Below the pieces are notes generated by a model. The model saw nothing but the letters and a program-made list of their open reading frames with translations. It was not told the origin of the DNA and did no database searches. The translations under genes were made by a program, and so were the position numbers. This document shows, in pieces, positions 49,303-49,791 of a DNA stretch of 64,000 bases (positions are counted from its first letter, which is position 1; each line of letters opens with the position of its first letter). Source of the stretch: Eledone cirrhosa (Eukaryota); NCBI GenBank assembly GCA_964016885.1, contig CAXHJY010000993.1, forward strand, positions 36,821 to 100,820, in the 5' to 3' direction.

Positions 49303-49791
49303 ATGTAATCTGAGTTTTTCGAATATTAATAATAATATTCGATTCGTTTGCAATTATACAAAACAGCCTCTTTTAAGAGATTACATTTATTGTATTCGGC
49401 CATGAAGAGCGATAACTATTTGTTAGTTATTTGAATATGGGAAAATCGGCCATTAATCGCTCGTATACATGAAACTGACTGGCCCATCTACTAATATGCA
49501 GATCCGACTGATCGGCCAGTCTGCTAATATGCAAATCAGGCCGATCAGTCACTATATATTTCAGAAAATATATATTTTCACTAGCTCTGACAGTTGGAGG
49601 TGAGCAGTAAACTGCACTGATGAAAGGTGATCACCCAGAAACATTAGTGTCTGCAGTTCTGTTTACATGCCAACACAAGAACAAGAATGAGGGACTCATT
49701 CTACTGACATAGCTTAAAAGAGGCTGTTTGCATAATTGCAAACGAATCGAATATTATTATTAATATTCGAAAAACTCAGATTACATTTATT
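49303..49791 (+). mobile_element. Non-coding hammerhead element with inverted terminal duplication (retrozyme/PLE-like)
   Basis: Inverted arms 49303-49377 and 49713-49786; direct repeat AGATTACATTTATT at 49378 and 49778. Confidence 0.85.
49609..49658 (+). ncRNA. Type I hammerhead ribozyme
   Basis: aactgca CTGATGA aaGGTGATCACCca GAAA CAttagTG TC|tgcagtt. Helix I is 7 bp and predicted cleavage is after GUC (49651). The base of helix II is mismatched. Confidence 0.8.

Follow-up and report, generated by a model that had tools for sequence, protein, structure and literature searches.

The window analyzed here, a 64-kb stretch of DNA from the octopus Eledone cirrhosa, holds at positions 49303-49791 a compact insertion that carries a hammerhead motif, lies between two microsatellites and begins with an inverted copy of its own end. 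Such a locus raises the question of what class of element it belongs to, which enzyme inserted it and what form of RNA was copied into the DNA. Animal non-LTR retrozymes are short hammerhead repeats with a unit of about 150-450 bp, a GC content below 50% and no protein (PMC7229834); the repeats measure 350-390 bp in Mytilus galloprovincialis and 220-245 bp in Acropora millepora (Cervera and de la Pena 2020, PMC7229834). On the basis of co-occurrence and pLTR similarity in 31 vertebrates, three insects and one coral, they have been argued to be non-autonomous derivatives of Penelope-like elements (PLEs) (Li, Clavereau and Pollet 2026, bioRxiv 10.64898/2026.07.22.740005). We consider it quite probable that the insertion at 49303-49791 belongs to an abundant family of 400-nt non-coding hammerhead repeats that are animal non-LTR retrozymes in type and were likely mobilized in trans by a PLE, probably of the Hydra clade.

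Layout of the insertion

The main copy (49378-49791) consists of one unit plus 14 nt. The unit itself (49378-49777, plus strand) is 400 nt long, non-coding, 37.5% in GC content and strongly self-paired in prediction. Its first 14 nt (49378-49391) recur as a direct repeat at 49778-49791 on the plus strand, a spacing of 400 nt, and this second copy of the head contains the putative start of reverse transcription at 49786-49791. In front of the main copy lies the inverted arm (49303-49377, minus strand), a 5'-truncated copy of the 3' end of the unit with its own 3' end directed toward the left flank, which matches the reverse complement of 49713-49786 at 97% over 75 nt, with one substitution and one indel. 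The arm falls 5 nt short of 49791, where the main copy ends, and its outer end matches the usual end of the family before (TA)n in public sequencing runs. A small palindrome is present at the inverted-arm junction, which would fit an antisense self-priming model that has also been proposed for PLE inversions (PMC3846280). The left flank (49160-49302) is (CA)n, with the run itself at 49160-49301, and forms part of the target microsatellite, and the right flank (49792-49804) is a short (TA)n that is common to the 3' end of an older, minus-strand hammerhead-bearing repeat. The initial annotation, made from the sequence alone, had described an inverted copy of the last ~75 bp, a head repeated exactly 400 nt later and a site between (CA)n and (TA)n, and each of these is present at the positions given.

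The hairpins proposed in the same annotation were likewise located, at 49506-49517/49539-49550, 49684-49691/49695-49702 and 49747-49770. The first falls within a long hairpin (49474-49550, plus strand) that is built of two internal repeats of ~33 nt, the number of which varies among copies; short go-back joints at 49486-49515 in the public runs lie in this repeat region. In this hairpin, 49514/49542 is a G-C pair here, the majority of copies carry A at 49514, and the loose-end consensus of one run has T at the place matching 49542, such that the changes are possibly compensatory. The 3'-terminal hairpin (49747-49770, plus strand) stands directly upstream of the putative priming site and is a possible recognition signal for the reverse transcriptase. 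Relative to shuffled sequences, the predicted fold of the unit has a z-score of −7.0 in linear form and −6.1 when circularized, the form whose folding had been proposed as a check. The absence of a credible ORF was confirmed, the longest ATG frame on the circular unit being 44 codons with no match to PLE protein, and searches of the unit for a tRNA gene and for a Pol III B box found neither. No second copy of the unit is present in the 64-kb window.

A type I hammerhead within the unit

A full hammerhead, previously placed at ~49609-49658, was found as a type I motif at 49610-49658 on the plus strand, with a predicted cut at 49651/49652. Stem I comprises 7 bp (49610-49616/49652-49658) and is followed by CTGATGA at 49617-49623, GAAA at 49638-49641, a short stem III and GTC; stem II has 3 bp in this copy, with an A.A mismatch at its base. 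The motif is well above chance in shuffles: a structural descriptor gave two matches in the 64-kb window, one in the unit and one in the right flank, compared with an average of 0.02 over 50 block shuffles; any descriptor match occurred in 11 of 20000 dinucleotide shuffles of the unit, and shuffles with a stem I of at least 7 bp and stems II and III of at least 3 bp numbered 0 of 20000. The Rfam hammerhead models gave no match to the motif, even at E values of up to 10, and across the 64-kb window Rfam gave no match at the gathering score and 11 weak matches, none of them to a hammerhead family. At 49625, this copy carries A in place of the G of most related copies; as the A abolishes the first pair of stem II, the copy at 49303-49791 may be a weaker ribozyme than the rest of its family.

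The stem III strand (49641-49650) is self-complementary and is predicted to pair with a second copy of itself over 10 bp; stem III strands also pair between copies in the dimer-type hammerheads of animals (PMC4209133). A two-strand double hammerhead is possible, but the predicted energies do not clearly favor it (−45.8, compared with −45.2 for a pair of folded monomers and −61.8 for the two-strand fold that scores best). Pairing between the catalytic core and the stem III strand (predicted P ~0.99) was considered as a safety catch against cleavage. The predicted gap to the active fold is 5.8 kcal/mol, compared with 0.6-9.9 (median 4.0) among 99 coral-type motifs described below; as a gap of at least 5 kcal/mol occurs in 32 of those 99 motifs, the safety-catch reading was dropped.

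An abundant repeat joined head to tail

Four of eight listed public DNA runs (X1, X2, X4 and X6) were aligned to 49378-49960 at 82% likeness, a stretch that takes in 169 nt of the flanking repeat; X1 and X2 derive from one sample, and one set consists of RAD reads. The matches comprised 8628, 9157 and 2710 contigs and 49684 RAD reads, figures that are not copy numbers, and came from runs under two organism labels. The unit is therefore not single-copy, with thousands of distinct contigs matching, and we put the size of the family at hundreds to thousands of copies. Depth over the unit is far above that over the flanking repeat in X1, X2 and X4. Because depth dips wherever the copy at 49303-49791 differs from the family, it was used neither as a truncation profile nor as a measure of copy number.

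The head-to-tail joint from 49777 to 49378 is present in 131 reads with 10 different starts in a single run, matching the earlier expectation of reads that cross from ~49777 into 49378 (in DNA, not RNA), and 70 and 68 contigs run on past 49795 into head-like sequence as loose ends. Together, these joints signify that the 400-nt period is real in DNA. In a search for an optional PLE-type tail of 30-40 bp, the loose ends kept to the head sequence over ~16 nt beyond 49795 and depth dropped downstream of 49417, a drop that is confounded by divergence. The records are short, and none spans two whole units or even the whole aligned stretch. Behind 49790, the loose ends are (TA)n in 63 and 54 contigs, which points to a fixed 3' end and a TA target; a 3-nt deletion at 49787 is among the run variants. 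Among the 15 joints listed (with 216 further joints), five change strand, at differing points, and for two of these one of the ends is 49378 or 49380. This repeated use of 49378-49380 is no more than suggestive, as 49378 is the edge of the aligned stretch, RAD reads sample only near enzyme sites and the listed joints stand against 216 more. Piles of read starts and ends at 49434, 49666-49669 and 49734 were dropped, as they are read as RAD enzyme sites (CATG at 49666 and AATT at 49734, with 49434 explained by a variant at 49437).

These data also bear on the nature of the inverted arm. Inverted ends on an insert that lies between microsatellites could be read as the 75-nt terminal inverted repeats of a MITE-like DNA transposon, or as an assembly artifact. 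Other copies, however, end at (TA)n or run into the head, their inversion points vary, and no clear target duplication is seen at the insertion, none of which suits a MITE; against either reading, the arms differ at 2 of 75 places and the window contains two other head-to-head hammerhead structures. We regard both readings as very improbable. The further strand-change joints instead agree with the earlier claim that the 5' inversion is a PLE signature, as do published descriptions of PLEs (PMC8557442, PMC3846280).

The copy at 49303-49791 differs from the X1 contig majority at at least 17 of 414 places (40 variants listed, with 182 more), none of them inside the part common to both arms. The two arms have diverged at only 2 of 75 places, so it is likely that most of these 17 differences either were present before the insertion or come from a related species; the runs may come from a relative or from another subfamily. 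Variants over 49378-49960 are also skewed by strand, with A>G at 21, 21, 25 and 22 places and T>C at 3, 3, 10 and 6 places in X1, X2, X4 and X6, respectively (binomial p = 0.0007, 0.0007, 0.04 and 0.007, measured against a single copy with the flank included, and with X1 and X2 from one sample). As a lead only, this skew could arise from tolerance of G.U pairs or from A-to-I editing of the RNA before retrotransposition.

In its type I hammerhead, its short, low-GC, non-coding and apparently self-paired unit, its head-to-tail arrangement and its high copy number, the repeat, with its fixed end before (TA)n, resembles the animal non-LTR retrozymes as judged from sequence; the A.A mismatch at the base of stem II sets it apart from them. 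It further shares with the retrozymes of the 2026 preprint the occurrence of solo monomers beside apparent multimers, the co-occurrence with PLEs and a proposed mobilization in trans; that preprint counts as active two consecutive units with whole hammerheads, and we found no analysis of insertion geometry in its available text (10.64898/2026.07.22.740005).

Penelope-like elements in the window

Hydra-clade PLEs target (TA)n and have hammerheads at their 3' ends, in which a one-base mismatch often sits at the base of stem II (PMC8557442), and Octopus bimaculoides is known to harbor one family of this clade, Hydra-1_Obim (Craig et al. 2021, PMC8557442). PLEs in general show inverted 5'-truncated copies as well as tails (PMC3846280). 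The unit shares with the Hydra clade the (TA)n target, a hammerhead near the 3' end, the mismatch at the base of stem II and the inverted 5'-truncated copies, but it has no frame for a reverse transcriptase with a C-terminal GIY-YIG domain, and by eye its hammerhead and 3' end differ from those of the Hydra-1_Obim consensus. Comparison with PLE protein gave no coding match in the unit (the best of 150 proteins reached E = 0.02 over 10 residues), and no coding PLE ORF was found contiguous with it.

Remnants of Hydra-type PLE reverse transcriptase or endonuclease are present elsewhere in the window, at 18747-20087, 48834-49088 and 56848-57190, none of them touching the unit. Word-index protein searches with two of the PLE remnants gave no match, whereas an exhaustive search did match them, and Pfam returned no family for three PLE remnants and four longer relatives. 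Three full-length relatives (709-722 aa) show, by eye, the RW(K/R), DK(T/S), CxCX5C, CxxC and CxH motifs, which are given for the Hydra clade (PMC8557442), and the remnant at 19085-19399 resembles Hydra-1_Obim, again by eye, a likeness that, along with repeat types known from octopus genomes, would suggest an octopus host. Long LINE-type reverse transcriptase frames were also seen at 1816-3168 and 61960-63269 (450 aa, minus strand; two pieces, plus strand).

Other hammerhead-bearing structures occur in the window. A second hammerhead element at 49805-49960, on the minus strand with its core from 49913, has its 3' end tail to tail with the unit at the same (TA)n; it is 74% identical over 74 nt to the hammerhead end at 58780/56266 and is itself repeated in the runs. 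At 56078-58890, a Hydra-type PLE remnant that holds the GIY-YIG piece at 56848-57190 is accompanied by a recent inverted duplicate of its 3' end (99% over 385 nt), an architecture that repeats that of 49303-49791 on a larger scale. A near-perfect 142-nt head-to-head palindrome at 26832-26973, whose two arms each hold a hammerhead-like core and whose ends are TA, is likely a minimal PLE insertion, and two related minimal hammerhead-like cores lie at 22557 and 39332 (82% over 38 nt). Among seven other window segments, no autonomous partner sharing the 3' end of the unit was found, and the similarity to hammerhead ends was confined to TA runs.

The unit might instead belong to a coding PLE, as its ordinary pseudo-LTR or as a long 3' UTR, with the copy at 49303-49791 a 5'-truncated end with a tail. 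Most genomic hammerheads of the type I kind are truncated PLE ends (PMC4209133), one such end lies in the window at 56078-58890, and summed depth is highest at the 3' end of the unit, peaking over 49738-49777 in X1 and X2. Nevertheless, the 3' end of other copies leads into the unit's own head and then its body, not into a frame, and the nearest reverse transcriptase remnant ends at 49088 in mid-protein, is 33% identical to its best match and lies beyond the (CA)n tract. This reading thus appears improbable to us, and a non-autonomous repeat mobilized by a PLE in trans is preferred.

Comparison with coral-type loci

A metagenome scan with a pattern taken from the hammerhead at 49610-49658 returned 119 loci, some of them the same site in different assemblies. 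Their size and a spacing of 241-246 nt suggest that they belong to the coral retrozyme type of PMC7229834; their likeness to the unit in stems I and III arises by construction of the pattern, and outside the hammerhead no sequence match to the unit was found among the 119. In most of these loci the repeat ends 8-14 nt downstream of the cut, and the 5' ends vary. Sufficient flank is available for 117 of them, and in 65 of these a TA run lies no more than 36 nt from the cut, compared with a background of 4.8%. The PLE-like insertion pattern is therefore common to the hammerhead-repeat class. At one locus (L012, 2420-3050), a coral-type hammerhead repeat has its 3' part attached head to tail directly after a Hydra-type PLE end with its own hammerhead, as expected if the coral-type repeat and the Hydra-type PLE share a target. 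As the cut and the start of reverse transcription nearly coincide in coral-type loci, the ends of those inserts cannot separate one template from another, whereas in the unit studied here the putative priming site is 135-140 nt after the cut.

Priming, template and mechanism

With its outer end (49786) within 5 nt of the end of the main copy and at the usual end of the family, the arm and the main copy both have the appearance of cDNAs whose synthesis was primed on opposite strands of a single TA tract and began from one shared internal site in the RNA, and we infer that the insertion is composed of two such cDNAs. In the mechanism that we propose, tandem copies would be transcribed and a PLE reverse transcriptase-endonuclease would nick both strands of a (TA)n tract, with each nick priming reverse transcription at the same internal U/A-rich site (49786-49791), just after the 3' hairpin rather than at the hammerhead cut. 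One cDNA would extend over one unit plus 14 nt and the other would stop after ~75 nt, after which the two cDNA ends would be linked head to head. The role of the hammerhead would be to reduce multimers to monomers, possibly in dimeric form or aided by a protein. A biochemical parallel is provided by the Poseidon element PAc from Anolis, the purified protein of which nicks AT-rich DNA, extends both strands and starts internally (Frangieh et al. 2024, PMC11167929). The proposed mechanism shares with PAc an internal start of reverse transcription downstream of the hammerhead, an AT-rich target, priming on both strands and possibly a tail, whereas PAc is autonomous, belongs to another clade and has a hammerhead that overlaps the start of its frame.

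The separation of the priming site from the cut constrains the template. The 5' end of the copy lies 274 nt before the predicted cut, and priming at 49786-49791 on a monomer cleaved at both of its ends would yield at most 140 nt; the template of the long cDNA must therefore have crossed the unit boundary with the cleavage site intact, which leaves a circle or a multimer that had escaped cleavage. Less likely is a linear RNA with its start at 49378. The initial annotation had held that a copy of slightly more than one monomer results from reverse transcription of a circular or tandem RNA; this either/or stands, and the locus fits both forms alike.

On an uncleaved tandem transcript, the long cDNA would have ended 9 nt beyond a second priming site located one unit upstream, and we give this reading close to an even chance. 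If the template was instead a circular monomer, reverse transcription would have gone once round and 14 nt past its own start, with the arm copied from a second RNA molecule. A main copy of one unit plus 14 nt that starts 274 nt from the cleavage site is consistent with a circle, as are the stable predicted fold of the circular unit (z = −6.1), the accumulation of related animal retrozymes mainly as circles (PMC7229834) and a coral-type locus (L004) with approximately one unit plus 10 nt between TA tracts and no inverted arm. Against it, twin priming on tandem RNA predicts the same stop, and uncleaved linear RNA is the main in vitro substrate of the one PLE tested, PAc (PMC11167929). A circular template is a tentative possibility, and we lean toward tandem RNA because uncleaved RNA was the main substrate in that one biochemical study and the circle is hypothetical here.

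Implications

Retrozymes of this class, the connection of the class with PLEs, the inversion and the preference for TA have all been published already. The family itself represents a new host record rather than new biology. No published description of an octopus retrozyme was found among the matches listed, and Repbase and Dfam may hold the family unnamed. The available main text of a repeat annotation of Octopus vulgaris makes no mention of hammerheads or retrozymes (PMC13282606), and for the giant squid genome 235 Rfam hammerhead loci are counted, without description in the text available to us (PMC6962438). Transposition of retrozymes via circular RNA has been proposed rather than shown (PMC7229834), as has their use of PLE enzymes (10.64898/2026.07.22.740005).

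The layout of the unit makes the question of circular templates testable. As the cut and the priming site are 135-140 nt apart, the 5' ends of copies across the genome could decide the template: ends at 49652 would indicate a cut linear RNA; ends at ~49378 with or without an arm would indicate a circle; and ends at ~49378 confined to copies that have an inverted arm would point to twin priming on tandem RNA. It remains a doubtful proposition, and one that we would not yet expect to hold, that ribozyme-made circular RNAs are the templates that Penelope-like reverse transcriptases integrate in animals, with a Hydra-clade helper and with the octopus as the first cephalopod host. If whole copies were to stop one turn plus a few bases past the start of reverse transcription genome-wide, arm-less copies included, this would be direct genomic evidence for circular templates in animals.
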